From contig JBQPWD010000003.1 of assembly GCA_052246995.1 (NCBI GenBank), positions 64,001-128,000 on the forward strand: a stretch of DNA of 64,000 bases, in the 5' to 3' direction. Shown here piece after piece: positions 29,575-47,536 of the stretch. Every line of letters begins with the position of its first letter. The first letter of the stretch is position 1. Under the pieces are notes generated by a model. It made no database searches and had not been told where the DNA came from. It saw only the letters and a program-made list of their open reading frames with translations. The position numbers and the translations under genes were made by a program. The DNA comes from Candidatus Bathyarchaeota archaeon. Its GTDB lineage: Archaea; Thermoproteota; Bathyarchaeia; Hecatellales; Hecatellaceae.

Positions 29575-30927
29575 ATGTCTGGTGAAAGGAAGAGGGTTAT
29601 TAAACGTTTGGAGAGTATGAGGCCTCTTAGGGCTAAGGTTGACCAGTCTTATTTGGATAGTGTTAAGGCTATGCAGGAGGGTAAGCCTGTAGCTTGGTGT
29701 ATGGTTAACTGGTGGATTGGTGATGTTGTTCTTAAGGCTATGGATGTTGTTACAGTTTACCCTGAAAATTATGGTGCTGTTTGTGCAGCTTTTGGTGTAG
29801 CTGAAAAATATTTAAACCTATCTGACTCTGATGGTATTCCAACACATATGTGTGGTTACAGTAGAAATTGTTTGGGTTATGCTATTAGAATGTTTAAGGA
29901 GCTTAAAGGGCAAATTCCGCCTGAAGCACCCATGGGCGGAATGGCTAAACCTGTTCTGCTTTTAGCATCATCAACTGGATGTGATCCAAGATATAAATGG
30001 TTCCAGCTACTAGGCAGGTATATAAATGTACCAATATGGACACTAGACGCCCCATCCCCGTCAACAATTGAACATGTTATGGATGAAAAGTATATGGATC
30101 AGATTATAAGGTTTGTTAGTAGGGATTTAAGGGAGTTTGTTGGTTTTTTGGAGAAGCTTCTTGGTAGGAGGATGGATTGGGGTAAGCTTGACGAAATTGT
30201 TAACGCCACTATTGAGATGCATAGGGTTTGGTTTGAGGTTAACGAGTTGAGGAAGGCTGTACCCTGCCCCATGCATTCAAGAGACTTCTGGTCTGCAATG
30301 CCCCCTGCACTCTTCCTATTAGGAAACCCTAAGGAGAGTGTTAAGCTTTATGAGGATTTGTATAGGGAGGTTAAGTATAGGGTTGACCATGGTATATGTG
30401 CAATTCCAGAAGAAAAATATAGGTTAATGTTTAGCGAACTTCCACCATGGCACAGCCTAGCATTCTTCGAAGACCTTGCAGAAAGAGGATGGAACTTTGT
30501 AACTGAAAGTCAAGGGTACCATCCACCAATACCCTTAAACAAAGAGTTTATAGAAAAAGTTGAAGACCCTCTAGAACGTATCGTCCGCCACTTCTACCAG
30601 TTTTTAACCTATTATGCTAGAAGAAGTTTAATGGGGGGTATAGGTTGCTATTCAAGTTCAGCAGCATACCTTGTTTGGGCTAAGGAGTATAAAGTTGATG
30701 GTGCAATGCTTCACCCCCTCATAACCTGCCGGTCTGCAACATCCCATCTTTATGAGATGGGTGAAATGTTGATGAAAATATTTAAAATTCCATCTTTTAT
30801 TGTTGAAGGTGACATTGTTGACCTTAGAGTTTTTAACGCCCAAGACGCCTTAAAAAGGGCAGAACCATTCGAAGAAACAATGCAACACTACGAAAAAGAA
30901 AGAAAAAAATTAGGATTAAACTGGTAA
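29575..30927 (+). CDS. 2-hydroxyacyl-CoA dehydratase / class I benzoyl-CoA reductase large subunit (HgdA/BcrB/BzdO-like)
   Basis: YPENY...C, CGY.R..LG, CD.R.KW, LPPW, DG...H...TCR, EGD.VD.R motifs. Confidence 0.85.
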   Translation: MSGERKRVIKRLESMRPLRAKVDQSYLDSVKAMQEGKPVAWCMVNWWIGDVVLKAMDVVTVYPENYGAVCAAFGVAEKYLNLSDSDGIPTHMCGYSRNCLGYAIRMFKELKGQIPPEAPMGGMAKPVLLLASSTGCDPRYKWFQLLGRYINVPIWTLDAPSPSTIEHVMDEKYMDQIIRFVSRDLREFVGFLEKLLGRRMDWGKLDEIVNATIEMHRVWFEVNELRKAVPCPMHSRDFWSAMPPALFLLGNPKESVKLYEDLYREVKYRVDHGICAIPEEKYRLMFSELPPWHSLAFFEDLAERGWNFVTESQGYHPPIPLNKEFIEKVEDPLERIVRHFYQFLTYYARRSLMGGIGCYSSSAAYLVWAKEYKVDGAMLHPLITCRSATSHLYEMGEMLMKIFKIPSFIVEGDIVDLRVFNAQDALKRAEPFEETMQHYEKERKKLGLNW

Positions 30928-30950
30928 AAACGTGGTTGAGGGGAGAATAA

Positions 30951-32135
30951 ATGGGTAAAAGTGTTAGTGGATTTAAGTTTGTGGAGGAGTTTTACAAGAA
31001 TCCTGCTAAAAAAGTTAAAGAGTTGAAGGAAAAAACAGGTATGAAGGTGGTAGGGTATATCTGTGCTTACCCCCCACTTGAAATTTTAACTGCTGCAAAC
31101 ATAATTCCCTACAGAGTTTTTGGGGATGTAAATGAACCTATAACTGAGGGTAACAGGGTTTTACCTCCAGTAATCTGTAGCTATGTGAGAAGCGTTATCG
31201 ACCTGAGTATGAAAGGAAAGTTTAATTTTCTCGATGGAATAGTATGGTCTCATTCTTGTGACTGTATGCATAAAGGTGGATTTGTTTATGCAAGTATTGT
31301 TGGTAAACCAGAATCATATGTTCTTGAAATACCTACAACCATACGTGAGGGAACTGTTGATGTTTTTAAGTATGAGTTATCTGAGTTTAAAAAGTGGCTT
31401 GAAGATTTTGCGGAAAAGGAGGTATCCCCGGAGGGTTTAAGAGAAGCTATTGAAAAACACAATAAACAAAGAAGTTTAGTAAAAAGGTTGTATGAGCTTA
31501 AACAACAAGATCCTCCACTTATTTCTGGTGTTGAAACTCTTAAGGTAGTTTCTGTTGTTGAAGCTTTACCAGTTGAAGAGGGTAATAAAGTTTTAGAGGA
31601 AGTTATAGAAGAAGCTGAAAAACGTGAAGAAAAACCTGAAAAACGACGTGCAAGGCTTTTAATTTGGGGTAGTATAGTAGATTCACCAGCACTTTTACAG
31701 ATGATTGAGGAAGCTGGTGCTCACGTTGTTATGGATGATACTTGTGTTTGCAGTAGACAGTTTTGGGTGCATAGCAAAGATCCAAGCGTTAAAACTACAG
31801 GTGACCTTATAGAAAATTTAGCTAGAAGCTATCTTTTAGAGATTAGGTGCCCAAGACTTTACTTAGGATCTTATGGCGTGCTGAGTAAGGATTATAAGAA
31901 AGATTTAGAGGAAAGATTTGGGTATTTAAAAGATTACGTTGAAAAGTGGAAGGTTAATGGAGTTGTATTGCATAGCCTACGATGCTGTGATGTTCATGGA
32001 TATGAGGTTCCGCAGGTTAAGGACTATCTAGACATGCTTAGAGTTCCATCCATTTACATAGAACCCGAGTATGATGTAAAATCATTACCACCCTTAAGAA
32101 CAAGGATTGAAGCATTCTTAGAAACAATTTCTTAA
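30951..32135 (+). CDS. 2-hydroxyacyl-CoA dehydratase / class I benzoyl-CoA reductase second subunit (HgdB/BcrC/BzdN-like)
   Basis: GYIC.Y.P.EI..AA, CSY.RS, HSCD, DD.C...R, CD.H, LRTRIEAFLE. Confidence 0.85.
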   Translation: MGKSVSGFKFVEEFYKNPAKKVKELKEKTGMKVVGYICAYPPLEILTAANIIPYRVFGDVNEPITEGNRVLPPVICSYVRSVIDLSMKGKFNFLDGIVWSHSCDCMHKGGFVYASIVGKPESYVLEIPTTIREGTVDVFKYELSEFKKWLEDFAEKEVSPEGLREAIEKHNKQRSLVKRLYELKQQDPPLISGVETLKVVSVVEALPVEEGNKVLEEVIEEAEKREEKPEKRRARLLIWGSIVDSPALLQMIEEAGAHVVMDDTCVCSRQFWVHSKDPSVKTTGDLIENLARSYLLEIRCPRLYLGSYGVLSKDYKKDLEERFGYLKDYVEKWKVNGVVLHSLRCCDVHGYEVPQVKDYLDMLRVPSIYIEPEYDVKSLPPLRTRIEAFLETIS

Positions 32136-32177: not shown

Positions 32178-33020
32178 ATGTATTTTGTAGGAGTTGATAT
32201 AGGTTCAACCTTCACCAAGGTTGTAATAGTAGATTCTAACGGTGATATTGCCTCTAAAGTCGAGGTCCCAACAAGGGCTGAACAACGTAAATTAGCCAAC
32301 AAGGTTATGGTTGAAGCATTAAACCAGACAAAGCTCTCTCTTGATGAAGTAGCTTACATTGTAGCCACAGGTTATGGCAGGTTTAATGTTCCTTTTGCAG
32401 ATCGTCAAGTTACAGAGTTAACATGTCATGCTAAAGGTATATCTACTCTGTTTCCTTCAGTGAAAACCGCTATTGACATTGGTGGACAGGATTCCAAGGG
32501 ACTTAAAATTAAGGATGGAAAACTGGTTAATTTTGTTACAAATGATAAATGTGCAGCCGGAACTGGAAGATTTCTTGAAGTTATGGCGGATTTGTTAAAT
32601 CTTAAAGTTGAAGATTTGGGAAAAATTTCCTTAAAATCAACAAGAAAAGTTAAAATTAGCAGCATATGTACAGTTTTTGCACGGTATGAGGTTATGGCAA
32701 AAATTTCTGAGAATGTTCCCATTGAAGATGTGATTGCAGGTTTACATTCTTCTATAGCTGACAGAATCATCAGAATGGTAAGTAGAATTGGTATTGAACC
32801 TGATGTTGCCGTTACAGGAGGAGTTGCAAAGAATGTTGGTGTTGTTAAGGCTATAGAAGAGTTGTTAGGGTATAAGGTTCTTGTTCCAGATGATCCATTA
32901 ATCACGGGAGCTTTGGGTGCAGCAATAATAGGAAAAAACATTATTGAGGAAGCGTTAAGGAGAGGAGAGGTTGTTAAAAAAGGACCGCGCCGCCTTGAGG
33001 AGGTTACATTTTACTGGTAG
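32178..33020 (+). CDS. ATP-dependent activase (ASKHA ATPase, HgdC/BcrA/BzdQ-like)
   Basis: GVDIGSTFTK, ATGYGR, TELTCHAKG, DIGGQDSK, NDKCAAGTGRFLE, SSICTVFA, TGGVAKN. Confidence 0.9.
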   Translation: MYFVGVDIGSTFTKVVIVDSNGDIASKVEVPTRAEQRKLANKVMVEALNQTKLSLDEVAYIVATGYGRFNVPFADRQVTELTCHAKGISTLFPSVKTAIDIGGQDSKGLKIKDGKLVNFVTNDKCAAGTGRFLEVMADLLNLKVEDLGKISLKSTRKVKISSICTVFARYEVMAKISENVPIEDVIAGLHSSIADRIIRMVSRIGIEPDVAVTGGVAKNVGVVKAIEELLGYKVLVPDDPLITGALGAAIIGKNIIEEALRRGEVVKKGPRRLEEVTFYW

Positions 33021-33035: not shown

Positions 33036-33833
33036 ATGAAATCAAGATTTTTTATGGGTATTGATATAGGTGTAGGTACAAGTAAGGGTGTTATAATAAA
33101 TGAAGAAGAGAACATAGTAGCATGCCATATATTACCTTCAGGTTTCAACTATAACTTGGCCGCTCAAAAACTTTTAAATGAACTTCTAGTTAAGGCTGGT
33201 TTAACTATGGAAAACTTATCTTATGTTGTAGCTACTGGTCAAGGTTCACCTAGTGTTGATTTTGCTAATGAGGAAGTTACAGATATTGTTTGTTGTGCAA
33301 GAGGAATAAATAAGTTGTTTCCCTCAGTAAGGACAGTTATCGATTTAGGTGAACAAACTAGTAGAGTTATTCATGTTGATAAAGATGGGTATGTAGCAAA
33401 TTTTATTGTTTCTGAAAAATGTGCTGGAGGTAGTGGATACATTTTACGTGTTGTTGCTAACATTTTACGTGTAAAATTAGAGGATTTAGGGGCTTTATCC
33501 CTTGCATCTAAAAATCCCATTAGCTTTACAACTAGATGTGCAGTTTTTGCTGAAACCGAGATTGTTTCAATGGTTGCTGAAGGCTTCCAGAAGGAGGATA
33601 TTGTCGCAGGAATCCATAAAGCATTAGCCGACAAAATTTTTGAGCTTGTTAACCGTGTAGGCTTAAAGGAGCCATGTGCAATTGCTGGTGGAGGCGGATG
33701 TGATGCTGGATTTATTAAAAGTTTGAAAGAAAGATTAGGAGTAGAAATAGTTATACCCCCTCAACCCCAGATAATCCTAGCTTTAGGCGCGGCAGTAATA
33801 GGTAAGAAAATTTTAAATAAACAAAATTTTTAA
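33036..33833 (+). CDS. Second, divergent activase subunit (BcrD/BzdP-like)
   Basis: GIDIG...SK, ATGQG, DLGEQTSR in place of DIGGQD, SEKCAGGSG, RCAVFAETE; both Fe-S Cys retained. Confidence 0.85.
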   Translation: MKSRFFMGIDIGVGTSKGVIINEEENIVACHILPSGFNYNLAAQKLLNELLVKAGLTMENLSYVVATGQGSPSVDFANEEVTDIVCCARGINKLFPSVRTVIDLGEQTSRVIHVDKDGYVANFIVSEKCAGGSGYILRVVANILRVKLEDLGALSLASKNPISFTTRCAVFAETEIVSMVAEGFQKEDIVAGIHKALADKIFELVNRVGLKEPCAIAGGGGCDAGFIKSLKERLGVEIVIPPQPQIILALGAAVIGKKILNKQNF

Positions 33834-33866: not shown

Positions 33867-35123
33867 GTGGAAAAATTGACAAGAGTTTTTGTTTTAAGTG
33901 CACGTAGAACTCCGTTTGGAAGGTTTGGTGGCTCATTGAGTAATTTAGCACCTGAGGGAAAACTTATAATAGAGCTTACTATGGTGGTGTTTAAAGAACT
34001 GCTGGAAAAGGCGAAAAAATCTTCAGAGGAGGTTGATGAGATATACTGGGGGGTTGGTGACAGCTCTCAGTGTCAGGATGTGTATACGCCGGTAGTTGCA
34101 AGACAAGCTTGGCTTAAATGTGGCTTTAACCCTAAAAAGTTTATTCTTGATATTGACCGAGCTTGTTGTTCTGGAATGGATGCTTTAATGCTTGGGTATA
34201 GAAGTATTTTACTGGGTGAAGCTAAGGTAGCAATAGGTGGAGGAGTTACATGCTTTAGCCAGGAACCATTGATAATTAGAGGTTTAAGGTGGAGAGGTTA
34301 TAGACTTGGTTTAGAGAGTATCATAATAGAGGATCCACTTTACAGGCTTGGGTACAAAGATTTTAACCCTGTTGCTGTTGATACTGGGGAAGTTGCCTTG
34401 GAATATGGTGTCTCCAGGGAAGAACAGGATATTTGGGCTTTACGTAGCCACCAAAGATATGGAAAAGCGTGGCAGGAAGGAAAATTTAAAGATGAAATTA
34501 TATCTTTAGAGATCCCTCTAAGAGATGAAAAAGGGAAAATTGTTGGTAGCAAGGTTTTAGATATAGATGAGCAATATAGGCCTGATGCCAGCTTAGAGAA
34601 GCTTTCAAAGCTTCCAACAATCTATGGAAGCCCAACGGTAACAGCTGGGAATGCCCCTGGCTTAAATGATGGTGCTGCTGGTTGCTTAATTGCAAGCGAG
34701 GAAAAAGTAGGAAATTGTAAGCCTTTGGGTGAAATTGTAGCCATGGCTTATGCGGCGCAGGAGGCTAGATATATAGCTTCAGTTCCAGCTTACGCTATAA
34801 TCAAGGTTTTAGAAAAAGCTAAGCTAAGTTTAGATGACATAAAACTTATAGAGATTAATGAAGCCTTTGCAGCTCAACCATTAGTTTCAACAAAAATCCT
34901 ATGTCAAGAATATTATGTAGGAAATGAGGAAAAGCTTAAAGAGATACGTGAAAAAACAAATGTTAATGGGTCAGCAATAGCTGCGGGTCATCCAAATACT
35001 GCTAGCGGTGCAAGATTGGTGATGCATCTACTCTATGAGCTTAGAAGAAGAGGTGGTGGATATGGTGTTGCGGCAATTTGCGGGGGTTTAGCTCAAGGTT
35101 CAGCATGCATAGTAAAAGTTTAG
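33867..35123 (+). CDS. Thiolase (acyl-CoA C-acyltransferase)
   Basis: RTPFGRFGG, active-site DRACCSG, TAGNAPGLNDGA, NEAFA, GHP, CGG. Confidence 0.92.
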   Translation: MEKLTRVFVLSARRTPFGRFGGSLSNLAPEGKLIIELTMVVFKELLEKAKKSSEEVDEIYWGVGDSSQCQDVYTPVVARQAWLKCGFNPKKFILDIDRACCSGMDALMLGYRSILLGEAKVAIGGGVTCFSQEPLIIRGLRWRGYRLGLESIIIEDPLYRLGYKDFNPVAVDTGEVALEYGVSREEQDIWALRSHQRYGKAWQEGKFKDEIISLEIPLRDEKGKIVGSKVLDIDEQYRPDASLEKLSKLPTIYGSPTVTAGNAPGLNDGAAGCLIASEEKVGNCKPLGEIVAMAYAAQEARYIASVPAYAIIKVLEKAKLSLDDIKLIEINEAFAAQPLVSTKILCQEYYVGNEEKLKEIREKTNVNGSAIAAGHPNTASGARLVMHLLYELRRRGGGYGVAAICGGLAQGSACIVKV

Positions 35124-35201: not shown

Positions 35202-36104
35202 TTACTTTTTCTTTTGTATTTTAAAGTAATCGTAGAAGCCTCCCCTACTTCCAGGCTTTGTTCTTGGATCTCCAAGGAAGCCTGCTGTAACAAGCTTTCT
35301 TAGTATTAGTGGTGCGGCATATCTTGAATCTTTAGTTCGGTCATAAACATACTCACATACGTGGAGCATGGTGTCTAACCCTATAAGGTCTGAAAGTTCA
35401 AATGGTCCCATTGGAAATCCGAAAGCCATTTTACACATATCATCAATCTCTTTTATTCCTGCAATTCCTAACTCAAAAAGCCTGATGGCTTCACATATCC
35501 AGTTTGTAATAAATCTTGATGTAAAGAAGCCTGGGCCATCACTAGCCTCAATTGGAATTTTATCAAGTTTTTTTGAAAGCTCAACCGTAATGTTGAATGT
35601 TTCATCTGAGGTTAACGTTCCCCTAATAACCTCTATGAGCCTCATAACTGGTGCAGGATTAAACCAATGCATCCCAACAAACCTTTCAGGCCTTTTAACA
35701 GCTGTTGCAAGCTCAGTAATCATTATGCTTGAAGTGTTTGATGCTATGATTGTTTCAGGGGAAACTATCTCGCTAACCTGTTTAAAAACTTTTTTCTTGA
35801 GTTCAGGATCCTCGGGTATAGCTTCAATAACATACTGGGCTTTGTTAAGCATGTTTAAATCTGTTGTAGGCTTAATCCTACTAATAACTTTATCAACATC
35901 TTCAGGCTTAATTTTTCCTTTCTCAACAAGCCTTGTTAAGCCGAAGGGACCACTTCTTATAAGTTCCATCGCTTTCTTTAAAAATTCATCCTTAACATCT
36001 ACAAGAACTATGTCATATCCCGACCTTGCACAAACTTGCGCTATACCGTGACCCATTACACCAGATCCAATTACACCTATAACCTTAATGTCCTCAATCT
36101 TCAA
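35202..36104 (-). CDS. 3-hydroxyacyl-CoA dehydrogenase
   Basis: GSGVMGHGIAQ, IEAIPE, ASNTSS, GMHWFNP, PMGPFEL.D.IGLD. Confidence 0.93.
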   Translation of the reverse strand: MKIEDIKVIGVIGSGVMGHGIAQVCARSGYDIVLVDVKDEFLKKAMELIRSGPFGLTRLVEKGKIKPEDVDKVISRIKPTTDLNMLNKAQYVIEAIPEDPELKKKVFKQVSEIVSPETIIASNTSSIMITELATAVKRPERFVGMHWFNPAPVMRLIEVIRGTLTSDETFNITVELSKKLDKIPIEASDGPGFFTSRFITNWICEAIRLFELGIAGIKEIDDMCKMAFGFPMGPFELSDLIGLDTMLHVCEYVYDRTKDSRYAAPLILRKLVTAGFLGDPRTKPGSRGGFYDYFKIQKKK

Positions 36105-36238: not shown

Positions 36239-38458
36239 ATGGTCTATGAAGAAATAAGAAAGAAAGTTAAAATGTGGAGGGAACCTTCAAAAGAAGAATT
36301 GGAAGAAATAAGAAAAATGGTAAGGGAAGCTTTTCCACGCGAAAGTGAAGAGTTCGTTGAGGAGTTAACATTAAACCTCTCCCAAGTTCAGCCAACCTTA
36401 AGGAAGTTTTACGTATGGAATGAAAAAGATAAAAAGGAAGGGAAAAAGGTTCCTTTAGGTCAAAGGGAGCTTTGGCCTAATCCAGCTCAATATGTTGTTG
36501 AGGCTCTCAAGGAACACAATGTGGAATGTGTTTTCGGTATACAGGGAGGGCACTTCTGGTCTGTAACCGACCTCATAAGCATGTATGGAATAAAAACCTA
36601 CGTGTTTCATCATGAATCTTCTTGTATGTATGCTGCAGAAGCCTATGCAAGAACTAAAAGAAAAGCTGCAGTATGCTATGTAACTGTGGGTCCTGGAACA
36701 ACAAACTTCTTCTCAGGTTTATATCAAGCTAGATTAAGCTGTACTCCTATTGTGTGTATTGTTGCTGGAAACGAGTCTCAAAGTAGAGATATGTACACTA
36801 TACAAGCACATTGGGCTGAAACCAATTTAAGCGGCGCTGCTAAATGGGTTAGACGTATGGAGCACTCAGCAATGATAAAGCGTTATATGACTTGGGGCTT
36901 TAGAATTGCGCAAACTTATCCATGCGGCCCTGTTGTTCTTGAATTCCCCTATCACCTACACTGGGATCCAGAGTGCTTTAAGGGTGAAAATAGACTTGGT
37001 AAACATGTTATTGAAGCTGTATTTGGGCAGCATGCATACTACAGAGAAAAATGGTATGGAGATAGAACTGATGATAACCCTAAAACATGGATGCCTGGCC
37101 CTAAGCCTGAATTAATCAAGGAGGCTGTTGAGGTCTTATGGAAATCTGAGAGACCTGTAATTGCTGTTGGTGACGGTGCATACTGGTCTGCTTGCGAAAA
37201 GGAACTTAAGGAATTTGCGGACTATACTCACATCCCGGTTATGACTAGAAGAGCTGGTAGAGGTATGATTGATGAACTTGGAGAAACTCCATACATGTCA
37301 AGGTTTATTACTCACAAAAGCTTTTCACGTTACCGTGGTCAAATTGATCTCATCCTAAACTTGGGTGTTAAGTTAAGCATGTTTGACTGGTATGGAGCGG
37401 ATTGGCCTGCAACAATTTCAATACTTCCAGCTATGGATCCAAGAGAAGCCTGTGGTCATGTTTGGACTTGGCTTGACACAAAAGTTTTAATAATTAGCGA
37501 CATCCAGACAGCACTTCAAGCCATGCTTGACTATATTAAGCAAAAGGGTCTAAAGCCTAGGAAGGAGTGGATTGAGTTTGGAGATACTGTAATGAAGATG
37601 GAGAAAAAGTGGATGGAGGAGAGGCTTAAGGCTTCAGAAGAATTTAAGCATATGAGTCCTGTTGCTTGGCCCTATCTTCTAGCGGCTATCCATAAAGTCT
37701 TGATGGAAAGATATAACTTTATGAATACAATTGTCCAAGATGGATACACAATATCACAGATGGCGGGAGGGTATGAGAGATTCCGTTATCCAGGGCAGCT
37801 TATAGAGTGCGCTGAACAGGCTGGAGTAGGTCATGGTGTAGGTCAATCTATAGGTGCTGCAATAGCTCAAGGTGAATTTGCTAAGAAGTATCCGATCCTA
37901 GTTTTGCTTGGTGATGCAGGTGCAGGTCTTCACGGTATGGATATAGAAACAGCATTAAAGTATAAACTGCCAATAGTATATCTGATCACAAACAACGATG
38001 GATGGCTTACGGGTGCTAAATGGATTTACTATGGAAAGAATTGGGATGCTTTAGGATACTTAGGACATAACCAAGATAAGGAGTTTGGAACATCAGAGTT
38101 CTTACCAGACATAAGATGGGATAAAATGTTTGAGGTTATTGGTTGTCATGGTGAATGGGTTACTAAGGGTGAGGAAGTTTTACCTGCTCTCAATAGGGCT
38201 TTTGATTCTGCTGAGAAATGTATACCTGCGGTGGTAAACGTAGATATGTGGCCAGGATGGATGAGCCCCGGAGCTCAAACATATGCCTACCAGATAAGCT
38301 GGGGTCACATACCATGGGAAATTTGTCCAAAGAAGGGTAAGGCTTTACGCAGATGGTGGCTTGCCCATGAGTTTGATTGGGAGAAGCTTGGTATACCTGT
38401 ACCTGAAGCTCCACCAGACCCATACTATCCAACTACAGAATGGGAAGCTGAGCCATAA
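36239..38458 (+). CDS. Large ThDP-dependent enzyme (ALS/HACL/oxalyl-CoA decarboxylase superfamily), paralog 1, with N-terminal extension
   Basis: FGIQGGH, HHE....AAEAY, TVGPG, ThDP motif GDAG...NND. Confidence 0.85.
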   Translation: MVYEEIRKKVKMWREPSKEELEEIRKMVREAFPRESEEFVEELTLNLSQVQPTLRKFYVWNEKDKKEGKKVPLGQRELWPNPAQYVVEALKEHNVECVFGIQGGHFWSVTDLISMYGIKTYVFHHESSCMYAAEAYARTKRKAAVCYVTVGPGTTNFFSGLYQARLSCTPIVCIVAGNESQSRDMYTIQAHWAETNLSGAAKWVRRMEHSAMIKRYMTWGFRIAQTYPCGPVVLEFPYHLHWDPECFKGENRLGKHVIEAVFGQHAYYREKWYGDRTDDNPKTWMPGPKPELIKEAVEVLWKSERPVIAVGDGAYWSACEKELKEFADYTHIPVMTRRAGRGMIDELGETPYMSRFITHKSFSRYRGQIDLILNLGVKLSMFDWYGADWPATISILPAMDPREACGHVWTWLDTKVLIISDIQTALQAMLDYIKQKGLKPRKEWIEFGDTVMKMEKKWMEERLKASEEFKHMSPVAWPYLLAAIHKVLMERYNFMNTIVQDGYTISQMAGGYERFRYPGQLIECAEQAGVGHGVGQSIGAAIAQGEFAKKYPILVLLGDAGAGLHGMDIETALKYKLPIVYLITNNDGWLTGAKWIYYGKNWDALGYLGHNQDKEFGTSEFLPDIRWDKMFEVIGCHGEWVTKGEEVLPALNRAFDSAEKCIPAVVNVDMWPGWMSPGAQTYAYQISWGHIPWEICPKKGKALRRWWLAHEFDWEKLGIPVPEAPPDPYYPTTEWEAEP

Positions 38459-38552: not shown

Positions 38553-39578
38553 TTGCCTCAAATAGATGATGTTAAATTTGGACTTGAAACAACAGTCTTA
38601 CCTAACAAAAGTCCAGAATTTTTTTCAAGTATTGAGAAAAACGGGTTTGATAGTATTTGGGTTAATGACCACTTTCTACCATGGTCTGACAGAGATGGTG
38701 AAAGATTTCCTTTTTCAAATTTTATGCAGTGGGTTTACCTGCCGTTAATTTTAAGTTATACATCTAAAGTTAAGGTTGGAACAGCAGTTACATGCCCATT
38801 ATTCCGATACCATCCAGCAATAGTGGCCCAGTATTTTGCACAATTAGATTGGACTTTTCCTGGAAGAGTTATACTTGGGGTAGGTACAGGTGAAATGATT
38901 AACGAAAGTCCCTTTGGGTTATGGCCAAGTCTTAAAGAGAGACGTGAAAGGCTTGCAGAAGCTGTTAGGCTTATAAGAATGCTTTGGGAAAAGAAAGACT
39001 ACTTTACATTTGAAGGAAAGTATTATCAGCTTAAAAATGCAAAACTTTACGTAAGACCTAAAGAAAAAATACCCATAATAGTTTCTGCAGGAGGACCTAA
39101 AGCTGCAGAACTTGCAGGTGAAATTGGAGACGGCATTATGGCTTTTTCAGGCTCCCCAGCAGAAGTGGAAGATAGGATACTTAAACCTTACCGTGAAAGT
39201 GTAAAAAAAACTGGAAAAAAGTTTGAGGAAATGGAGAGAACTTTATACATTTTTGGTGGTGTTGTTGACCCAAACATTTTAACAAAAATTCTTAGAGGGT
39301 TAAAAAGAACAGTAATATGGACTTTCGAGGAAGCACATAAGAAAGCTGACCCTAGAGAAATTGACCAGCTTGTTGAAGCAGCTCCTGAAAGTATAGTTTT
39401 AGAGAAATCAGCATTTGTAACTTCTGTTGACGAACTAATAGATCGTCTTGAAAAATATGTAAAGGCAGGGATAAACCACTTTATCTTTGCAGATTTTACA
39501 AACAGTATAGCTCGCAAGCCTGATGAAATTTCAGATATTTGGAGTAAAAAAGTCATTCCATACTTCAAGGGGAAGTAG
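38553..39578 (+). CDS. LLM-class (F420-dependent) oxidoreductase, paralog 2
   Basis: GFDSIWVNDHFLPW, VTCPLFRYHPAIVAQ, GVGTGE..NE. Confidence 0.85.
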   Translation: MPQIDDVKFGLETTVLPNKSPEFFSSIEKNGFDSIWVNDHFLPWSDRDGERFPFSNFMQWVYLPLILSYTSKVKVGTAVTCPLFRYHPAIVAQYFAQLDWTFPGRVILGVGTGEMINESPFGLWPSLKERRERLAEAVRLIRMLWEKKDYFTFEGKYYQLKNAKLYVRPKEKIPIIVSAGGPKAAELAGEIGDGIMAFSGSPAEVEDRILKPYRESVKKTGKKFEEMERTLYIFGGVVDPNILTKILRGLKRTVIWTFEEAHKKADPREIDQLVEAAPESIVLEKSAFVTSVDELIDRLEKYVKAGINHFIFADFTNSIARKPDEISDIWSKKVIPYFKGK

Positions 39579-41144: not shown

Positions 41145-41663
41145 CTATGCAATACCGTATGGTGTTAACCAGCCAAACAAAAATCCAACCCCGCATACAC
41201 CTATTACTGCTGCACCTATAAACAGTGAAACTACTGTAAGCTTTACTATTGGTTTTTTAAGAGCCAGCAATAACCAGAAGAGCCCCCAAAGATAAGCCCA
41301 CAAAACCCATAGGAAGCACATTAAGTACATACCAAACACTCCGGTAACGTAGATGAAAGGTATACATGCAAGAACAACAAACAAACAGTACCAGCCTAAA
41401 CCTGGTTGTTCTGTTGTACCTGTCATGATGTTGAAGAAAAGGTAGAAGTATGTGTAAGCAAAGAGTAGGAATGCTCCAAGGTTTAGAGGGTTCTTTTCAA
41501 CAAAACCATCATATGCACCTATCAGAAAACATATTATCCCTGTCCATAAAGCCATTGCCGCTGTTTCCTTTGCTCCAACCTTGCCCATCAGGAAAAATGC
41601 TACTATGACTAATGCTGCACAAACATAGAGAGCTGCAACCCCAATTAAATCTGGAGAAGCCAT
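41145..41663 (-). CDS. AmiS/UreI family small-solute channel
   Basis: Six TM helices; LLFAYTY, GLGWYCLFV, W..WA.LW..FW signature. Confidence 0.85.
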   Translation of the reverse strand: MASPDLIGVAALYVCAALVIVAFFLMGKVGAKETAAMALWTGIICFLIGAYDGFVEKNPLNLGAFLLFAYTYFYLFFNIMTGTTEQPGLGWYCLFVVLACIPFIYVTGVFGMYLMCFLWVLWAYLWGLFWLLLALKKPIVKLTVVSLFIGAAVIGVCGVGFLFGWLTPYGIA

Positions 41664-41939: not shown

Positions 41940-43979
41940 ATGAGTCAACCAAGTGGAGAAAGAAAAATTAAGGTTGGAGATAAGGAGTTTACAGTACCTT
42001 TAGGTGAACTTGAGTTTATACCGTGCTCAGGTACGCTTATTGCTGAAGCTTTGGTTGAACATGGGGTTGATGTTGTTTTCGGTGTTCAGGGAGGCCATAT
42101 ATGGCAGTTTACCGATGAGATAGCTAGACATGGAATAAAAATTGTTACAGTACGTCATGAACAAACAGCTGTTTATGCTGCTGAGGCTTATTCTAAGGTT
42201 AAGAGGAGACCTGGAGTTGCATTTGCCACGGTAGGCCCTGGAACAGGAAACATGGTAAGTGCAGTGCAGCAAGCCTATTTAAGCAGAAGCCCAATAATCG
42301 TTCTACTTGGAGGCCATGAAATAGAGCATGACAGGCTTTACACAACCATCCAGGAGGCTTATGCTGAAGACCTTTATGATGGAATTTCTAAATGGACTCA
42401 AAGAATTGTTCATCCATGCCAAATTAAACAGTTTATATGTAGAGCTTTCAAGGATGCTATGAGCTACCCCTATGGTCCAGTGGTTTTAGAATTTTCCATA
42501 TCATGCCTACTCACACTCCTACCGCCAAAACCATTCCCAGTTTACCAAGAGTTATTTGCAGCCCAGACAGCTGTTGACGGCAAAAATACCCTCTACACAC
42601 CTAAATGGTATGGTGAAAACACAGGTAAACCATTCAGCTTTGGTGGAGATCCAGCCCTTATTGAGAAGGCTGTTAAAGCAATCTATGAAGCTAAAAGCCC
42701 AGTTATTATTGCTGCTGACGGAGCCCACTGGGCTGATGCTGGACCCGAAATTCAAGAATTTTGTGAACTTGCACAAGTTCCTGTAAGTGGTAGAAGGCTT
42801 GGTAGGGGTTGTATACCTGAAACCCATCCACTACACTTTAGAAGTAGAGCTGCACATGCATTTATCAGGGATGCTGACCTTGTTGTTCTTGTTGGTATGA
42901 AGGTTGGATTTTTTGATGGCTATGGTGCTGAATGGAGGAGAGTAATTCAAATAACCGAATCTCCGGAGCAAGTTTGGACATGGCTTCCAACAGAAGTTGT
43001 TGTTATAGGTAATCCTAAAGTTGTTTTTCGGCAGATGGTTGACTATGTTAAGTCTCATAATCTTAAACCTCCACCTGAAAGAAAAGAATGGGTTGAAAAG
43101 GTTCGGCAGTCTGAGAAGGAGCAGTATGAGAGGCTTATTGCTAAGGCTGAGAAGTATAAGGATCATAAGCCTCTACATCACGCATGGATTATGAAGGTTT
43201 TATGGGATATTGTTGAGGAAAGGTATGGTGGAGAAAACTACATAATCCAAGACGGCTTCACAATGTCAGACTATTCTCCACCGTTCATCAAAGCTAGAAT
43301 ATCTGGGCAATGTATGGATGCTTCTGAACAGGCAGGTGTAGGCCACAGCGTAGGAATGAGCATAGGAATATGCTTCGCAAACCCAGAATTCACAAGAAAA
43401 AAACCAGTAATAGCCCTACTAGGAGATGCAGGTGTAGGAAATAGCGGTATGGATATAGAAACAGCACAAAGATTCAACCTACCAATAGTATACATAATAA
43501 CAAACAACGACGGATGGTTAACAAGCTGTAAAGCAACCCACTACTCAACTTCTAGAGGTAAACAATGGGATGGTTTAGGCCCTGACCCAGATAACCTTAG
43601 AATAGGCCACAGCGAATTCCTAAAAGATATTAGGTATGATAAGATGTTTGAGGTTCTCGGTTGCCACACCGATTGGGTTACAGAACCAGCCCAACTCAAA
43701 GACACATTAAACAAAGCATTCGACGCAGCAGAAAAAGGAAAAGTAGCAGTAGTAAACATAGATGTAGACCCAACAATTGCTAATAAAGCAACATATACCC
43801 CGGTCTATACGCTGGTTTGGGCTCATATACCATGGGATAAAACACCTAAGAGAAACAAGGCTTTAAGAAGAACCTTCTTAGCCGTGTTGTTTGGAGAAGC
43901 GTTTAAGAAGTATGGTATACCTGAAATGCCTCTTCCAGATCCATGGGAACCTGTTAAAGATGAAGAAATGGAGCCATAA
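41940..43979 (+). CDS. Large ThDP-dependent enzyme, paralog 2
   Basis: FGVQGGH, VRHEQTAVYAAEAY, TVGPG, GPVVLE, GDAGVG...NND. Confidence 0.87.
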   Translation: MSQPSGERKIKVGDKEFTVPLGELEFIPCSGTLIAEALVEHGVDVVFGVQGGHIWQFTDEIARHGIKIVTVRHEQTAVYAAEAYSKVKRRPGVAFATVGPGTGNMVSAVQQAYLSRSPIIVLLGGHEIEHDRLYTTIQEAYAEDLYDGISKWTQRIVHPCQIKQFICRAFKDAMSYPYGPVVLEFSISCLLTLLPPKPFPVYQELFAAQTAVDGKNTLYTPKWYGENTGKPFSFGGDPALIEKAVKAIYEAKSPVIIAADGAHWADAGPEIQEFCELAQVPVSGRRLGRGCIPETHPLHFRSRAAHAFIRDADLVVLVGMKVGFFDGYGAEWRRVIQITESPEQVWTWLPTEVVVIGNPKVVFRQMVDYVKSHNLKPPPERKEWVEKVRQSEKEQYERLIAKAEKYKDHKPLHHAWIMKVLWDIVEERYGGENYIIQDGFTMSDYSPPFIKARISGQCMDASEQAGVGHSVGMSIGICFANPEFTRKKPVIALLGDAGVGNSGMDIETAQRFNLPIVYIITNNDGWLTSCKATHYSTSRGKQWDGLGPDPDNLRIGHSEFLKDIRYDKMFEVLGCHTDWVTEPAQLKDTLNKAFDAAEKGKVAVVNIDVDPTIANKATYTPVYTLVWAHIPWDKTPKRNKALRRTFLAVLFGEAFKKYGIPEMPLPDPWEPVKDEEMEP

Positions 43980-44014: not shown

Positions 44015-44779
44015 TTAGGTTAATTCTGGGTAGACGCATAGTACTTCTTCTTTAATTTGTACTTCATTGTGAACCCACCAGACATTTCTTAAGTATCTTC
44101 TTGAAACGTTTACAGCTTCAACAACTTCATCTACTGATGCACTTCTCCATGGTGCAGATGGCACCGCAACATAACCAATTACTGTAAACATTATTCCCTC
44201 ATCTACTGATGAAACAAATCCTGCAATATTTTCAACTTCACCCTTGTCAATTAACCCTGGAATTAGTACTGTTGTAGCTCTTGGTACAAGTTCACTACCC
44301 CATAAAAGCCTAAAATTTTTAAGAACATCTTTGTTTGACTTTCCAGTATAATACTTGTGAAGCTTGTCATTGTATGCCTTTATGCTAACTCTAACCTCAT
44401 CTAAACCTGCAACCTCCAGACTTCTAATCTTATTCTCATCTAAGCAATACGCATTTGTTTCAAGAATAATTCCTAAACCATGGTGACTAAGCATTTCAAC
44501 AATTTTGGGTAGATTTGGGTCTAAGGTTGGCTCCTGACCGCTAAGTAAGACTATCTTTACATCCGAAAATTGAGGTAAGATTTGCTTAAGTCTCTCTAAG
44601 CTTAAAGTTTTTAACGGTTGAGGTTTAAGCTTTTCCTGAACATTTTTTGGTAGTGAAGGAGACCAGGGTGAAAGCTTATTTATACAGCCTAAACAGTTAA
44701 AATTACAGTTTTTAAAAAGTAAGCCCAGTACACGACGCTTAGTAAAAAAAATTATATGGTAAATGTTTGTTTCATCCAT
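44015..44779 (-). CDS. Radical SAM protein (PFL-activase-like)
   Basis: CNFNCLGC, SGQEPTLD, ETNA, SIKA....LH..YTGKSN..VL.N, VLIPG. Confidence 0.85.
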   Translation of the reverse strand: MDETNIYHIIFFTKRRVLGLLFKNCNFNCLGCINKLSPWSPSLPKNVQEKLKPQPLKTLSLERLKQILPQFSDVKIVLLSGQEPTLDPNLPKIVEMLSHHGLGIILETNAYCLDENKIRSLEVAGLDEVRVSIKAYNDKLHKYYTGKSNKDVLKNFRLLWGSELVPRATTVLIPGLIDKGEVENIAGFVSSVDEGIMFTVIGYVAVPSAPWRSASVDEVVEAVNVSRRYLRNVWWVHNEVQIKEEVLCVYPELT

Positions 44780-44788: not shown

Positions 44789-45931
44789 CTAATCTCTAGG
44801 CCAACACCACCACTGTTGCCTGTATGGAGGAATATGTTCCCAGCTTATAAACGGAAACTGGTCTGGAGATGTTTGAAGAGCCCATTTTAAAGGTTTCTTT
44901 AAAACTCTTCCACTTTTTGTTGTATAGGGTCTTAAATCTCTCTCTAAAACCCACTCTAAAAGTCTTCCAAGCCCTAAAACTTTATCAATGTTTACACCAG
45001 TGTCGATACCCATTTCATCAAACATAACAAGAGTATCTTCAGTTGAACAGTTTCCAGTTAAATCTGAAAAAGTGTAAAGTGTTCCTGTGCCTGCAGGTAC
45101 AATATCCCCAGCAAAAAATGTTGGCTGTCCACCTAACCCTCCAAGGGAGGCCTCTACAATTTTTACCCCTCCAAGTATTGCTGCTAACGTGTTGGCTAAA
45201 CCCATACCTCTACTATCGTGGAAGTGTGCTAAATGACATTCTGCATCTGGAAATCTATCATGAAGCTCACAGTAAAACTCGTAAACCTCTTTTGGGTTAG
45301 CTTCCCCAGTTGTATCACAGGGTGTAAACTTTTTAATACCCATTTCTAAACCTCTCTCAATAAGCCACATAGCCTTTTTAGTTGTTTTTTCCCAAGGCAT
45401 GTTACCAGTAATTGGACAGCCAAAAACCGAGGCTATAGCCATATCTATGGTTATACCTGCACCTTGACAAAGTTCAACAAACGTTGGGATTTCCTTTAAA
45501 AATTGTTCAACCGTCCTGTTAGCGTTTCTTAAGCAATGTTCATCTGTTGTTGAAATGGTAAAAGCACATAAATCTACTGATAAACCTTCATCTTTGGCTT
45601 TAACAGCCCTTTCAAAAGCCTTCGTAGTCATGGCATAACACTTATACTTTACACCAGGTTTCCTTTTAATCCTTCTAAGAACATCCTCAGCATCCTTAAA
45701 TTGAGGCATCCACCTTGGATGAGCAAAATTGGTAACCTCAACAGTATCAAACCCACAATCAGAAAATTGGTCTATAAAGAAAACCTTAGTTTCTGTTGGC
45801 AGTATCTTTCTTTCATGTTGAATACCATCCCTAGCAAAAAGTTCAACCATTTTAACATGTTTAGGTAGCTGGCTATCAAAAAGCTCCTTAACAAATTTTC
45901 TGTTTTCTTCTTGGGTTTTTACATGAGTCAA
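44789..45931 (-). CDS. HMG-CoA lyase-like (DRE-TIM) acyl-CoA lyase
   Basis: RDG.QHE, FGCP, DTTG.ANP, HFHDSRG..LAN, GLGGQP, GN..TED. Confidence 0.85.
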   Translation of the reverse strand: MTHVKTQEENRKFVKELFDSQLPKHVKMVELFARDGIQHERKILPTETKVFFIDQFSDCGFDTVEVTNFAHPRWMPQFKDAEDVLRRIKRKPGVKYKCYAMTTKAFERAVKAKDEGLSVDLCAFTISTTDEHCLRNANRTVEQFLKEIPTFVELCQGAGITIDMAIASVFGCPITGNMPWEKTTKKAMWLIERGLEMGIKKFTPCDTTGEANPKEVYEFYCELHDRFPDAECHLAHFHDSRGMGLANTLAAILGGVKIVEASLGGLGGQPTFFAGDIVPAGTGTLYTFSDLTGNCSTEDTLVMFDEMGIDTGVNIDKVLGLGRLLEWVLERDLRPYTTKSGRVLKKPLKWALQTSPDQFPFISWEHIPPYRQQWWCWPRD

Positions 45932-45949
45932 TTTGTCTAACCCCTCCTT

Positions 45950-47536
45950 CTATTCAGAAGAAATAAGAAGTGTTTTGTACTGTTCCCTTAAAATTCTCTT
46001 TAAAATTTTTCCTGTTAACGTTCTTGGAAAATCATCCACAAACACAATTTTCTTTGGAGCCTTAAACCTTGCAATTCTTTCTTTACACCACTGAATAAGC
46101 TCCTCCTCAGAGGCTTTTCTACCTTCCCTAAGCTTAACAAAAGCTGTAACAGCCTGCCCCCATTTCTCATGTGGTAAACCTGCAACTGCACACTCGTAAA
46201 CTGCTGGATGTTCCATTAAAACATTTTCAACCTCGGTTGATGCTACATGCTCACCCCCAGTTACAATAACATCATCAGACCTTTCAGCTAAATGTAAGTA
46301 TCCCTCTTCATCAAACCATCCTAAATCTCCAGCCGTAACCCATTCACCCTTAATAGCTTTTGCGGTTTTTTCAGGATCTTTGTAGTAGCCTGAGAATGCC
46401 ATGGGGGTTTTAACCCATATCTGTCCTACAACACCTGGAGGGCATTCTTTACCGTTCTCATCAAGTATTTTAACTTCTACCTCAGGTAAAACTTGACCAA
46501 CAGTATCCAGCTTTCTACCTTGAAGGATATCTTTATGTCTTAATGTTGTAACTGGACCTGTTTCTGTTGAACCATAACTGTTACTTAACCTAATGTTTTT
46601 AAAAAATTCTACAACCTTTTTAATGGTTGATGGGTAAAGCATTGCTGAACCACTACCGATCGAATCTATACTGCTTACATCATACCTTTTTTTAACCTCA
46701 TCTGGAAGTTCAAGTATTGAAAGAAGCATTGCAGGTACAACAGACGTTGTTGTAACCTTATATTTATCTATAAGTTTGAGAACTTCTTCAGCATCAAACT
46801 TTCCACCAGGAGCCCTGTAAACCACGTTTGTTCCACCATACCAGAACGTTATGGATGTACTCCAAATGGAGTTTGAATGAACTAGAGGCATGAGGACAAG
46901 TAGAACTCTTTTTTCAGGATTAACTCCCTCTCTAGACCATCCTCTCATAACAGCATTCTGCATATTTTCAAGTAAAGCCTTATGGGAAACCATAACACCT
47001 TTAGGTAAACCTGTTGTTCCCGACGTATATCCAATGTAACATAGGTCTAAAGGTTTAATATGTACATCAGGGTCTTCTGGAGAACCGCTGGAAACAAGGT
47101 CTTCATAGCTCAACATGTTTGATGGTACTTCCTCACCTATTACTATGTAATGCTTAATTTTCTTAAGGTCCTCCATTATAGGAGCTATTACTCCTAAAAG
47201 TTCATCTTCAATTATCATTACCTCAGCATCGCAGTGGTTTATTATGTACCTCATGTTTTCCAATGTTAACCTATAATTTATTGGCACAAGAACAATTCCA
47301 GCTCTAATTAAGGCTTGAATTATTTCAACAGCCTCTAAGCAGTTGTAGGTTAAGTAGGCAACTTTGTCACCCTTTTTTACACCAAAGTTTATTAATGCGT
47401 TTGCCAACCTGTTAACTCTTTCATCAAGCTCCTTATAGGTTAAACTTTTAACTATTTCCCCATGCTCGAAGATTACAGCCTTTTTTTCAGGATATTTCCA
47501 TGAACTGATTTTTAATCCTACACTAACATCTATCAT
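45950..47536 (-). CDS. AMP-forming long-chain acyl-CoA synthetase
   Basis: YTSGTTGLPKG, YGSTE, GDLG, TGGE.V...EVE, P...TGKILKR. Confidence 0.92.
   Translation of the reverse strand: MIDVSVGLKISSWKYPEKKAVIFEHGEIVKSLTYKELDERVNRLANALINFGVKKGDKVAYLTYNCLEAVEIIQALIRAGIVLVPINYRLTLENMRYIINHCDAEVMIIEDELLGVIAPIMEDLKKIKHYIVIGEEVPSNMLSYEDLVSSGSPEDPDVHIKPLDLCYIGYTSGTTGLPKGVMVSHKALLENMQNAVMRGWSREGVNPEKRVLLVLMPLVHSNSIWSTSITFWYGGTNVVYRAPGGKFDAEEVLKLIDKYKVTTTSVVPAMLLSILELPDEVKKRYDVSSIDSIGSGSAMLYPSTIKKVVEFFKNIRLSNSYGSTETGPVTTLRHKDILQGRKLDTVGQVLPEVEVKILDENGKECPPGVVGQIWVKTPMAFSGYYKDPEKTAKAIKGEWVTAGDLGWFDEEGYLHLAERSDDVIVTGGEHVASTEVENVLMEHPAVYECAVAGLPHEKWGQAVTAFVKLREGRKASEEELIQWCKERIARFKAPKKIVFVDDFPRTLTGKILKRILREQYKTLLISSE

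Follow-up and report, generated by a model that had tools for sequence, protein, structure and literature searches.

A Bathyarchaeia gene cluster resembling the acetone/ketone-inducible clusters of sulfate-reducing bacteria

A gene cluster at positions 29575-47536 of a 64,000-nucleotide stretch of DNA from a Bathyarchaeia genome encodes two long-form thiamine diphosphate (ThDP) enzymes, a four-gene module of the 2-hydroxyacyl-CoA dehydratase (HGD)/benzoyl-CoA reductase (BCR) type, a radical SAM protein and several enzymes of acyl-CoA metabolism. The whole stretch, hereafter the window, corresponds to positions 64001-128000 of contig C3 of a genome of 1.53 Mb that is rated 100% complete. On balance, we favor the view that this cluster is the Bathyarchaeia counterpart of the acetone/ketone-inducible cluster of sulfate-reducing bacteria. 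The best-supported direction is the addition of a one-carbon unit to a ketone, after which the HgdA/HgdB module and beta-oxidation enzymes would act on the resulting 2-hydroxyacyl-CoA; this chemistry, in every step, is something we infer from the genes, their families and their neighbors.

The bacterial clusters were described in Desulfococcus biacutus, Desulfosarcina cetonica, Desulfotomaculum arcticum and D. geothermicum. According to the available portions of three reports (PMC4103992, PMC7888143, PMC8084838), the inducing growth substrates are acetone, butanone, pentanones and isopropanol, and the induced proteins are a ThDP-dependent (TDP) enzyme, an HMGL-like protein, an acyl-CoA synthetase, acetyl-CoA acetyltransferases, a 3-hydroxyacyl-CoA dehydrogenase, an enoyl-CoA hydratase and two BCR/HGD subunits; a gene resembling that of the PFL-activating enzyme adjoins the TDP gene. 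The same portions relate that 2-hydroxyisobutyryl-CoA is about ten-fold higher in acetone-grown cells, and that this intermediate and the later steps are known but the one-carbon donor of the TDP step is not. The TDP reaction itself could not be demonstrated, and assays of extracts from two species with the obvious donors were unsuccessful. Roles suggested in the published portions for the PFL-activase-like, HMGL-like and ligase partners are the making of the one-carbon donor or the activation of the ThDP enzyme. A 685-aa protein of D. biacutus was named as a 2-hydroxyacyl-CoA lyase (HACL) candidate with 22% identity to the actinobacterial lyase (PMC7176365); the locus tag of the D. biacutus TDP enzyme is 04574 in that report and 04566 in the available part of PMC4103992. 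We found no later literature on the TDP step and, in the literature searched, no link of a ketone-activation cluster to Bathyarchaeia or other archaea.

As far as these reports are available, they support condensation, in which a ketone and a one-carbon unit yield 2-hydroxyisobutyryl-CoA, over alpha-cleavage. An earlier note on this DNA, made from its letters alone, had proposed an anaerobic alpha-cleavage of acyl-CoA or its reversal as a one-carbon elongation, and had known of no earlier description of the combination of genes. The elongating direction is the one that published evidence favors, whereas cleavage of fatty acyl-CoA found no support here. The supposed novelty did not hold up: in the portions available, the gene set is that of the four sulfate reducers' clusters, and the lyase candidate appears in PMC7176365. 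The gene combination is thus already described, with its key enzyme unsolved; what is new is the Bathyarchaeia host, the presence of multiple ThDP paralogs (a copy of the alpha-like dehydratase subunit adjoins several), a pair of Adf-like F420 oxidoreductases of the luciferase-like type (LLMs) and the lack of a clustered B12 mutase.

Listing of open reading frames (ORFs) combined with Pfam and NCBIfam scans recovered all the genes that had been named for 29575-47536, and added two radical SAM genes (rSAM1 and rSAM2) and an AmiS/UreI channel gene. The cluster opens on the forward strand with an alpha-like HgdA-type subunit of 450 aa (29575..30927; Pfam HGD-D), a beta-like HgdB-type subunit of 394 aa (30951..32135; HGD-D, 1e-80) and two activator-type ATPases of the BcrAD/BadFG family that are 39% identical to each other, ATPase 1 (32178..33020; Pfam 2.9e-65; TIGR00241 270.7 bits, above the cut-off of 125.4) and ATPase 2 (33036..33833; Pfam 9.8e-47; TIGR00241 205.6 bits). 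Next come a thiolase of the acetyl-CoA C-acyltransferase type (33867..35123, forward; Thiolase_N/C; TIGR01930 337.8 bits, cut-off 240.55) and, on the reverse strand, a 3-hydroxyacyl-CoA dehydrogenase (35202..36104; 3HCDH_N/3HCDH; NF004699 458.8 bits, under the cut-off of 500). Four forward-strand genes follow: ThDP1, a long-form protein related to HACL and oxalyl-CoA decarboxylase (OXC), 739 aa as called (36239..38458; TPP_enzyme_N/M/C); LLM2, an Adf-like F420-dependent oxidoreductase (38553..39578; Bac_luciferase); rSAM1, a PFL-activase-like radical SAM protein with an N-terminal iron-sulfur (Fe-S) domain (39639..40844; Fer4, Fer2_4, Radical_SAM), whose gene lies between those of LLM2 and ThDP2; and ThDP2, a long-form HACL/OXC-related protein of 679 aa (41940..43979; TPP_enzyme N, M and C domains). 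An HMGL-like lyase (44789..45931; HMGL-like; NF004283 HMG-CoA lyase 207 bits, cut-off 246) and an AMP-forming acyl-CoA ligase (45950..47536; AMP-binding; NF004837 491.6 bits, cut-off 476) complete the cluster on the reverse strand.

Sequence and fold place ThDP1 and ThDP2, which are 44% identical, on the OXC/HACL side of the ThDP family, apart from acetolactate synthase (ALS), in agreement with the earlier note. The top PDB match of ThDP1 by sequence was OXC (5.4e-35), ThDP2 matched HACS/OXC (5.4e-50) and the lyase AcHACL (1.5e-42), and acetolactate synthases scored far below OXC, HACL and HACS for both proteins. A structure model of ThDP2 (pLDDT 80.1, pTM 0.84) gave HACS, HACL and OXC as top Foldseek matches (E 2.6e-42 to 7e-36, target-normalised TM 0.82-0.90). 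We also built a 55-row tree (a quick IQ-TREE run, LG+G4, rooted on a single outgroup) in which the E. coli proteins Oxc, IlvI, IlvB, Gcl and PoxB served as named references, without the TDP enzymes of D. biacutus and D. cetonica. A separate group (SH-aLRT 96) united IlvI, IlvB and Gcl with the ALS-like gene of the genome itself, and E. coli Oxc, on a long branch, came together with the long family and eleven short HACL/OXC-like proteins (SH-aLRT 99). A single clade of 38 rows (SH-aLRT 100) made up the long family and contained ThDP1, on a long branch (0.96), ThDP2, three paralogs from a sister genome and the proteins of Desulfoscipio geothermicus and Desulfotruncus arcticus. Since neither window protein grouped with true ALS, the tree argues for the HACL/OXC side. 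The genome's ALS-like gene, 43% identical to E. coli IlvI, lies on contig C1 and an IlvH homolog on C2, consistent with the previous observation that no ilv genes are nearby. The proteins of D. geothermicus DSM 3669 and D. arcticus DSM 17038 share one 90% cluster (601/676 identical), and the available part of PMC8084838 gives 88.76% identity for the acetone-induced TDP enzymes of the two species.

Members of the long family have about 646-739 residues. The cofactor-activating glutamate (E74) and the ThDP motif (GDAG...NNDGW) are conserved over 15 members and align to AcHACL, and the active-site glutamine of AcHACL, Q128, aligns with Q138 of ThDP2, which is invariant in the family. The family has in addition its own C-terminal tail (HIPWD...KRGKA.RR...DPWEP, present in 15/15 members aligned) and, following NNxGW, a loop of its own in which K531, Y535 and W543 do not vary. 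ThDP1 as called has about 50 N-terminal residues (36239-36400) beyond the usual start of the family and in-frame Met codons further in, so its true start is uncertain and may lie further in. A protein search returned "thiamine pyrophosphate-binding proteins" of about 646 aa, 45-61% identical, with the labels Dehalococcoidia, Chloroflexi, Deltaproteobacteria/Desulfobacterales and Bacillota. Proteins of about 1090 aa in which DUF362 (PF04015) is fused to a long-form ThDP enzyme (48-51% identity) were also seen (P0076, P0088, P0090, P0091, P0093, P0095 and P0099), two of them labelled Deltaproteobacteria.

The surroundings of the ThDP genes were compared with those of relatives in metagenome contigs. 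A scan with an alignment of 15 family members yielded 80 loci, which tblastn with window proteins sorted into 70 family loci (at least 40% identity to ThDP2) and 10 controls carrying short HACL/OXC-like genes; neighbors were counted over the 37 family loci of 8 kb or more, and because many of these are close kin the counts are not independent. Beside the family gene we found an rSAM1 homolog in 13/37 long loci, an HGD-D gene in 11, a family III CoA-transferase in 10, a short HACL/OXC-like ThDP gene, an AMP ligase and a crotonase (ECH) in 9 each, an HMGL (homologs 44-52% identical) in 8, a B12 mutase in 7, a thiolase in 5, a 3-hydroxyacyl-CoA dehydrogenase also in 5, and activator ATPases in 4. 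At least one of rSAM1, HGD-D, HMGL and mutase was present in 29 of the 37, and the control loci had only the CoA-transferase (7/10). The AMP ligase is paired with HMGL beside the ThDP gene in related loci. The co-occurrence of the ThDP gene with a BCR/HGD-type module that had been surmised from the window thus recurs in other genomes and contigs. Two loci are particularly close to the systems compared. In L056 the order ThDP, rSAM1, small ORF, thiolase, dehydrogenase, ligase is that of D. arcticum genes 04018 to 04013, and the ThDP protein is the sister of the D. geothermicus protein in the tree; L066 carries ThDP, rSAM1 and mutase, then ATPase2, ATPase1, HgdB and HgdA, with 40-57% identity to the window module.

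Further observations came from the same loci. In one bacterial group, the space separating the ThDP gene from the rSAM1 homolog holds a small conserved ORF without a Pfam family (about 145-160 aa, pairwise identity 42-59%), for example at L063:8073-8552, with equivalents in L065-L069, L073, L075 and L086. It may match "hypothetical protein 04016" of D. arcticum (L056:3784-4104 is a weak match, E 5e-4). In the window, the small ORFs that separate rSAM1 from ThDP2 have no Pfam family and yielded no homolog of this bacterial ORF. Short HACL/OXC-like genes (about 540 aa) stand beside the long-form gene in L020, L024, L031, L048, L049, L052, L088 and others, often in the same loci as family III CoA-transferases. 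In PDB sequence searches, two short ThDP proteins had HACS/OXC as top matches; for one short gene the top match was the Dehalococcoidia HACS 8vzj (4.1e-63).

The route that we propose would begin with secondary alcohols, which the two Adf-like F420 oxidoreductases may oxidize to ketones. LLM2 has as its top PDB match the F420-dependent alcohol dehydrogenase 1rhc (1.7e-57, 198 bits), and a CofE gene is present in the genome. LLM1, which is 57% identical to LLM2, is encoded upstream of the module (25807..26835, forward; Bac_luciferase 5.7e-45; NCBIfam F420 G6PDH family 159.5 bits, under the cut-off of 210.4). The earlier note had suggested that the LLM enzyme could handle the carbonyl product of a cleavage reaction; the match to 1rhc fits the making of a ketone from a secondary alcohol better. 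The long-form ThDP enzymes would then add an activated one-carbon unit, with formyl-CoA as the foremost candidate for its donor, to the ketone or an aldehyde, giving a 2-hydroxy-2-methylacyl-CoA such as 2-hydroxyisobutyryl-CoA by the HACL reaction run backwards. The ATP-primed HgdA/HgdB module would act on this 2-hydroxyacyl-CoA, most simply by dehydrating it to an enoyl-CoA, the beta-oxidation enzymes would take part downstream of the module, and ADP-forming acyl-CoA synthetases could recover ATP. One such synthetase, of the alpha subunit type, follows LLM1 (26874..28301, forward; CoA_binding/Succ_CoA_lig/Ligase_CoA_2; TIGR02717 497 bits, under the cut-off of 567).

Conserved partners of the ThDP gene include the radical SAM protein of PFL-activase type, the HMGL-like lyase and the acyl-CoA ligase. 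The CxxxCxxC radical SAM core of rSAM1 (C172/C176/C179) and its GGE are invariant; eight N-terminal Cys, a further four-Cys set, a CNxxCxxC motif and the GGE are conserved in 11/11 homologs. The best fold match of the rSAM1 model (pLDDT 72.9) was the PFL-activating enzyme (3c8f/3cb8, 1e-11, target-normalised TM 0.72-0.74), with the next family at 2e-8, and the PFLA model TIGR02493 scored 34.1 against a cut-off of 231.75. The glycyl-radical motif R[VIL]xG[FYW] was found in none of 29 window proteins. The second radical SAM gene, rSAM2 (44015..44779, reverse, 254 aa; Radical_SAM 2.4e-20), is not kept beside the ThDP gene in related metagenome loci.

For the four-carbon ester derived from acetone, an unlinked B12 mutase could replace the linked 2-hydroxyisobutyryl-CoA mutase of the bacteria. 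Two acyl-CoA mutase genes lie elsewhere in the genome, at C1:34757-39493 and C2:215333-217392. Typing them by PDB match was rejected, as both copies have HcmA (4r3u) on top and are not separated. At the columns of E. coli ScpA Y78/R196, which we take to be the methylmalonyl-CoA mutase (MCM) signature of the Propionibacterium enzyme, Tyr89/Arg207, the MCM-like pair Y/R is found in the C2 copy and F/Q, without the MCM-type Arg, in the C1 copy; mutases linked to ThDP genes carry L/G and those linked to the module L/R. The C1 gene adjoins genes for MeaB, a B12-binding subunit, an SCP-type thiolase and DUF35. We regard the C1 mutase, judging from its residues, as a candidate for the missing mutase and as nothing firmer.

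The four-gene module, as judged from its sequences, is neither a clear dehydratase nor a clear reductase. The HgdA-like subunit has as top PDB match HadB (8.5e-22), the alpha subunit of 2-hydroxyisocaproyl-CoA dehydratase and its nearest solved relative, followed by MbdO and BzdO, and the HgdB-like subunit has BzdN (1.2e-39), then a double-cubane protein and HadC. Cys 70, 93, 136 and 385 of HgdA are conserved in 15/15 homologs, and Cys 38, 76, 103, 300 and 346 of HgdB in 7/7, with a sixth Cys in 6/7; both ATPases carry the cluster-bridging Cys pair (Cys 125 and 164 in ATPase 1). Scores to the equivalog models stayed under the cut-offs for HadB/HadC (106.1 versus 750 and 149.3 versus 700), BzdO/BzdN (85.5 versus 448.6 and 145.6 versus 453.8) and BcrB/BcrC (56.4 versus 486.55 and 135.3 versus 421.15). 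The layout of four subunits with two different ATPase genes is that of class I benzoyl-CoA reductase (Bcr/Bzd).

In five of five fetched loci (L111-L115) from bacterial genomes in which the ThDP family was not found (G367, G559, G433, G333 and G501), the module, at 43-62% identity, stands beside MeaB and a split B12 acyl-CoA mutase. L114:5445-17013 reads in one direction: SDR, crotonase, SCP-type thiolase, DUF35, HgdA, HgdB, ATPase1, ATPase2, MeaB, mutase and B12-binding subunit; we found no description of such a module-mutase unit in the literature. The steadiest partner of the module is therefore an acyl-CoA mutase, and since 2-hydroxyisobutyryl-CoA is both a mutase substrate and a 2-hydroxyacyl-CoA, the most economical guess is that the module substrate is a 2-hydroxy(iso)acyl-CoA. 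No description of a natural 2-hydroxyisobutyryl-CoA dehydratase was found in the literature searched. A second HGD-type set at C1:225150-228311 (beta-like, alpha-like and one ATPase) has the classic dehydratase layout and is 26-28% identical to the window subunits.

The long-form ThDP family was found in 2/301 genomes of the class Bathyarchaeia, both of the window's genus, and in 3/301 genomes of one bacterial class, where an HgdA-like gene (E 1e-90 or better) is present in 3/3 family genomes versus 16/298 others; a scan of genome contigs with a single-protein query gave 2 loci only. The ThDP2 clade is nested among bacterially labelled sequences, which in this tree rooted on one outgroup would fit an acquisition from bacteria. 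In the sister genome there are three ThDP paralogs and one HgdB, along with three HgdA paralogs that share 77-81% identity with the window HgdA; two of the three HgdA genes are head-to-head with ThDP paralogs, and one such pair also adjoins an rSAM1 homolog, a dehydrogenase and a crotonase. A shared beta/ATPase set with alpha paralogs placed by ThDP paralogs would be expected if each alpha subunit handles the 2-hydroxyacyl-CoA of its own ThDP enzyme. The genome under study has a third long-form ThDP gene at C3:1-2452 (locus L015, outside the window), with a frameshift near residue 330 that splits it into two frames; it abuts an HgdA fragment, 91% identical over 88 aa, that is cut by the contig start. 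The window HgdA gene itself varies: over 29589-31197, three runs yield contigs with 43-66 letter differences and 6 gaps relative to the window, as against 0-8 differences over the flanking genes, which may reflect strain variation or exchange among HgdA paralogs.

Several findings weigh against a ketone-activation role. No member of the long family has a known activity, and ThDP2 is only 45-47% identical to the induced proteins of the Desulfotomaculum group; together with the long branch of ThDP1, this means that the paralogs may use other substrates. Neither ThDP protein reaches an NCBIfam equivalog cut-off, ThDP2 scoring 180.9 to TIGR03254 (OXC; cut-off 739.4) and 187.5 to NF058623 (actinobacterial HACL; cut-off 600), and ThDP1 151.9 and 119.8. 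In pairwise alignment, the catalytic E493 of AcHACL falls on a Ser in ThDP2, and most of the AcHACL CoA-contact residues (Q255, R273, S274, R362, R417, D561 and K564) have no like residue when mapped by hand; by this mapping only the Q255 contact meets a conserved family position, R286, within the invariant R285/R286/R289. The B12 mutase and MeaB, which define the bacterial pathway, are absent from the window. An Adf-like LLM adjoins the family ThDP gene in only 1/70 related loci, and for LLM2 the F420-G6PDH match (181 bits) is nearly level with 1rhc. The module, with its two unlike ATPases and a beta-like subunit nearest BzdN, could be a reductase and not a dehydratase. It is also present in 16/298 genomes of the bacterial class mentioned above that lack the ThDP family, and its occurrence there, and beside a mutase, indicates that it does not depend on the ThDP enzyme.

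In another reading, the family would be as described and its chemistry a different one, with another donor or acceptor (for example oxalyl-CoA, glyoxylate, or a one-carbon unit made with the help of the radical SAM protein and the ATP-driven module) and with the partner proteins required. We consider this unlikely, though it accommodates a number of observations: the obvious-donor assays failed in extracts of two species, according to the portions of the reports available; the PFL-activase-like gene, with its three extra conserved Cys sets, is the commonest neighbor (13/37 long loci); the family has its own C-terminal tail and post-NNxGW loop (K531, Y535, W543), and some members are fused to DUF362; and the short HACL/OXC-like and CoA-transferase genes in 9/37 loci could supply formyl-CoA or oxalyl-CoA chemistry separately. 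It is opposed by the absence of a glycyl-radical motif from the cluster proteins, by the 24/37 long loci that have no radical SAM gene within the flank and by the intermediate found in vivo, 2-hydroxyisobutyryl-CoA, in the same portions. A rather improbable elaboration is that the long-form ThDP protein forms the core of a radical-assisted carboligase, to which rSAM1 and/or the HgdA-type Fe-S module would supply a radical or electrons of very low potential, so that a one-carbon unit derived from CO2 or CO could be attached to an unactivated ketone. Such an enzyme would explain both the failure of plain-enzyme assays with ordinary one-carbon donors and the HgdA paralog beside each ThDP paralog.

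The oxygen-independent alpha-oxidation favored in the earlier note would convert acyl-CoA to enoyl-CoA, hydrate it at carbon 2 by the module running in reverse and cleave the product with the ThDP enzyme to formyl-CoA and an aldehyde or ketone. The HACL/OXC-like sequence and fold of the ThDP proteins agree with it, as do the two acyl-CoA dehydrogenases and further hydratases in the window, and HACL reactions are reversible, according to the available part of PMC8760513. A family III CoA-transferase encoded just upstream of the module (28289..29446, forward; CoA_transf_3 1.8e-102) has formyl-CoA transferase as its top NCBIfam model; its score is, however, below the cut-off (240 versus 442 bits), and it is 31% identical to E. 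coli Frc. Pfam scans revealed no aldehyde dehydrogenase in the cluster, and the evidence from sulfate reducers, in the published portions available, is for the condensing direction. This pathway is therefore quite unlikely in our estimate.

In an aromatic or alicyclic route, the module would be a Bzd-type aryl-CoA reductase and the ThDP enzymes would open rings in the manner of cyclohexane-1,2-dione hydrolase. Four subunits with two different ATPases, a beta-like subunit nearest BzdN, and UbiX and a PaaK-like ligase in the window could be read in this way. The BCR equivalogs, however, are far under their cut-offs (85.5 versus 448.6; 145.6 versus 453.8), and cyclohexane-1,2-dione hydrolase matched ThDP1 at 6.7e-18 and did not appear for ThDP2 among the 60 matches listed, against 5.4e-35 and 5.4e-50 for OXC/HACL. 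Homologous BCR/HGD subunits are acetone-induced in sulfate reducers, as far as the reports are available. UbiX was dropped as a hint of aromatic metabolism, since the genome's one UbiD gene lies on a different contig; the UbiD/UbiX pair serves archaea in the mevalonate route. We hold this route to be very unlikely. A chance gathering of unrelated acyl-CoA genes in a small genome, for which one could cite the many kinds of such genes in the window, is the least credible explanation, because relatives of the ThDP gene in bacterial and archaeal genomes and metagenome contigs repeatedly have the same partners beside them and the control loci lack these partners, which speaks for a grouping beyond chance.

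The entire window forms an island of acyl-CoA metabolism. It holds two acyl-CoA dehydrogenases (2696-5090), a crotonase-type enoyl-CoA hydratase outside the cluster (22929..23750, reverse; ECH_1 5.2e-77), a second crotonase (6748-7557) and a PaaK-like ligase (12123-13484), and three genes for ADP-forming acyl-CoA synthetases of the alpha type lie inside 12 kb (17023-18417, 21359-22831 and 26874-28301). Of the nearby Fwd and Hdr genes that the earlier note had suggested could handle the one-carbon unit, Hdr stands, with HdrB, HdrC and an HdrA-MvhD fusion at 49079-55124, and Fwd is not confirmed: 60769-62070 gave only a Molybdopterin match (E 3.8e-4), below the cut-off. The AmiS/UreI-family channel gene (41145..41663, reverse; AmiS_UreI 4.3e-22) is directly upstream of ThDP2 and has no homolog in the 80 related metagenome loci. 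Known members of this family pass urea and short amides, which are like acetone in size and shape.

Part of the window stretch was found in eight runs of three studies, six of the runs being labelled hot springs, so the proteins might be sturdier to work with. Contigs from an RNA-Seq library, with 0-3 differences, cover the dehydrogenase, HgdB and part of ThDP1, and two such contigs together span ThDP2, reaching from 45 bases ahead of its start to 117 past its stop, which is no proof of transcription.

We conclude that the cluster is an archaeal variant of a known, mechanistically unsolved ketone-activation system, which it extends to the Archaea. Oxygen-free activation of ketones by sulfate reducers is an open problem of enzymology, the ThDP-dependent first step having never worked in vitro according to the published portions available. 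The archaeal loci and their relatives offer candidates for the missing components, namely the PFL-activase-like radical SAM protein, the HgdA-type subunits, the HMGL/ligase pair and the pairs of short HACL/OXC-like and CoA-transferase genes. If the condensation is real, it would be a natural one-carbon elongation reaction, relevant to synthetic formyl-CoA pathways, and would point to the turnover of alcohols and ketones as a niche for Bathyarchaeia.

Among known systems, AcHACL (7pt1), HACS (8vz*) and OXC (2q27/2c31) share with the window proteins the three-domain ThDP fold, the cofactor Glu, the ThDP motif and the active-site Gln, and AcHACL shares an extended C-terminus with the long form. 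The proteins differ in that identity is only 22-27%, E493 is changed in ThDP2, equivalog cut-offs are not reached, and the long form has about 70 extra C-terminal residues bearing its own motif as well as the loop after NNxGW. The module resembles HadBC/HadI and BzdNOPQ in having two HGD-D subunits with conserved Cys and ASKHA-type activator ATPases with a Cys pair. Unlike either, it is mixed, with an alpha-like subunit nearest HadB and a beta-like subunit nearest BzdN, and unlike HadBC/HadI it has two dissimilar ATPases, as in BCR; dehydratases use a single activator ATPase. Peroxisomal and bacterial alpha-oxidation, in which a 2-hydroxylase works with HACL, has in common with our proposal the core step, a HACL-type reaction at the C1-C2 bond of a 2-hydroxyacyl-CoA. 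In contrast, the Bathyarchaeia cluster has no hydroxylase, the bond is likely formed, and the likely substrates are short ketones and not long or branched fatty acids.

The clusters of the sulfate reducers differ from the window in several respects: the host of the latter is an archaeon whose cluster lacks the B12 mutase and MeaB; the archaeal cluster showed no subunits of a carboxyltransferase or decarboxylase; the archaeal genomes have two to three ThDP paralogs each, several adjoining an HgdA paralog; and the window has two Adf-like F420 oxidoreductases and an AmiS/UreI channel. Common to both are a ThDP enzyme of the long form and of one clade, a radical SAM gene of PFL-activase type close to the ThDP gene, and an HMGL-like lyase, an AMP-forming acyl-CoA synthetase, a thiolase, a 3-hydroxyacyl-CoA dehydrogenase, an enoyl-CoA hydratase and subunits of the BCR/HGD type.

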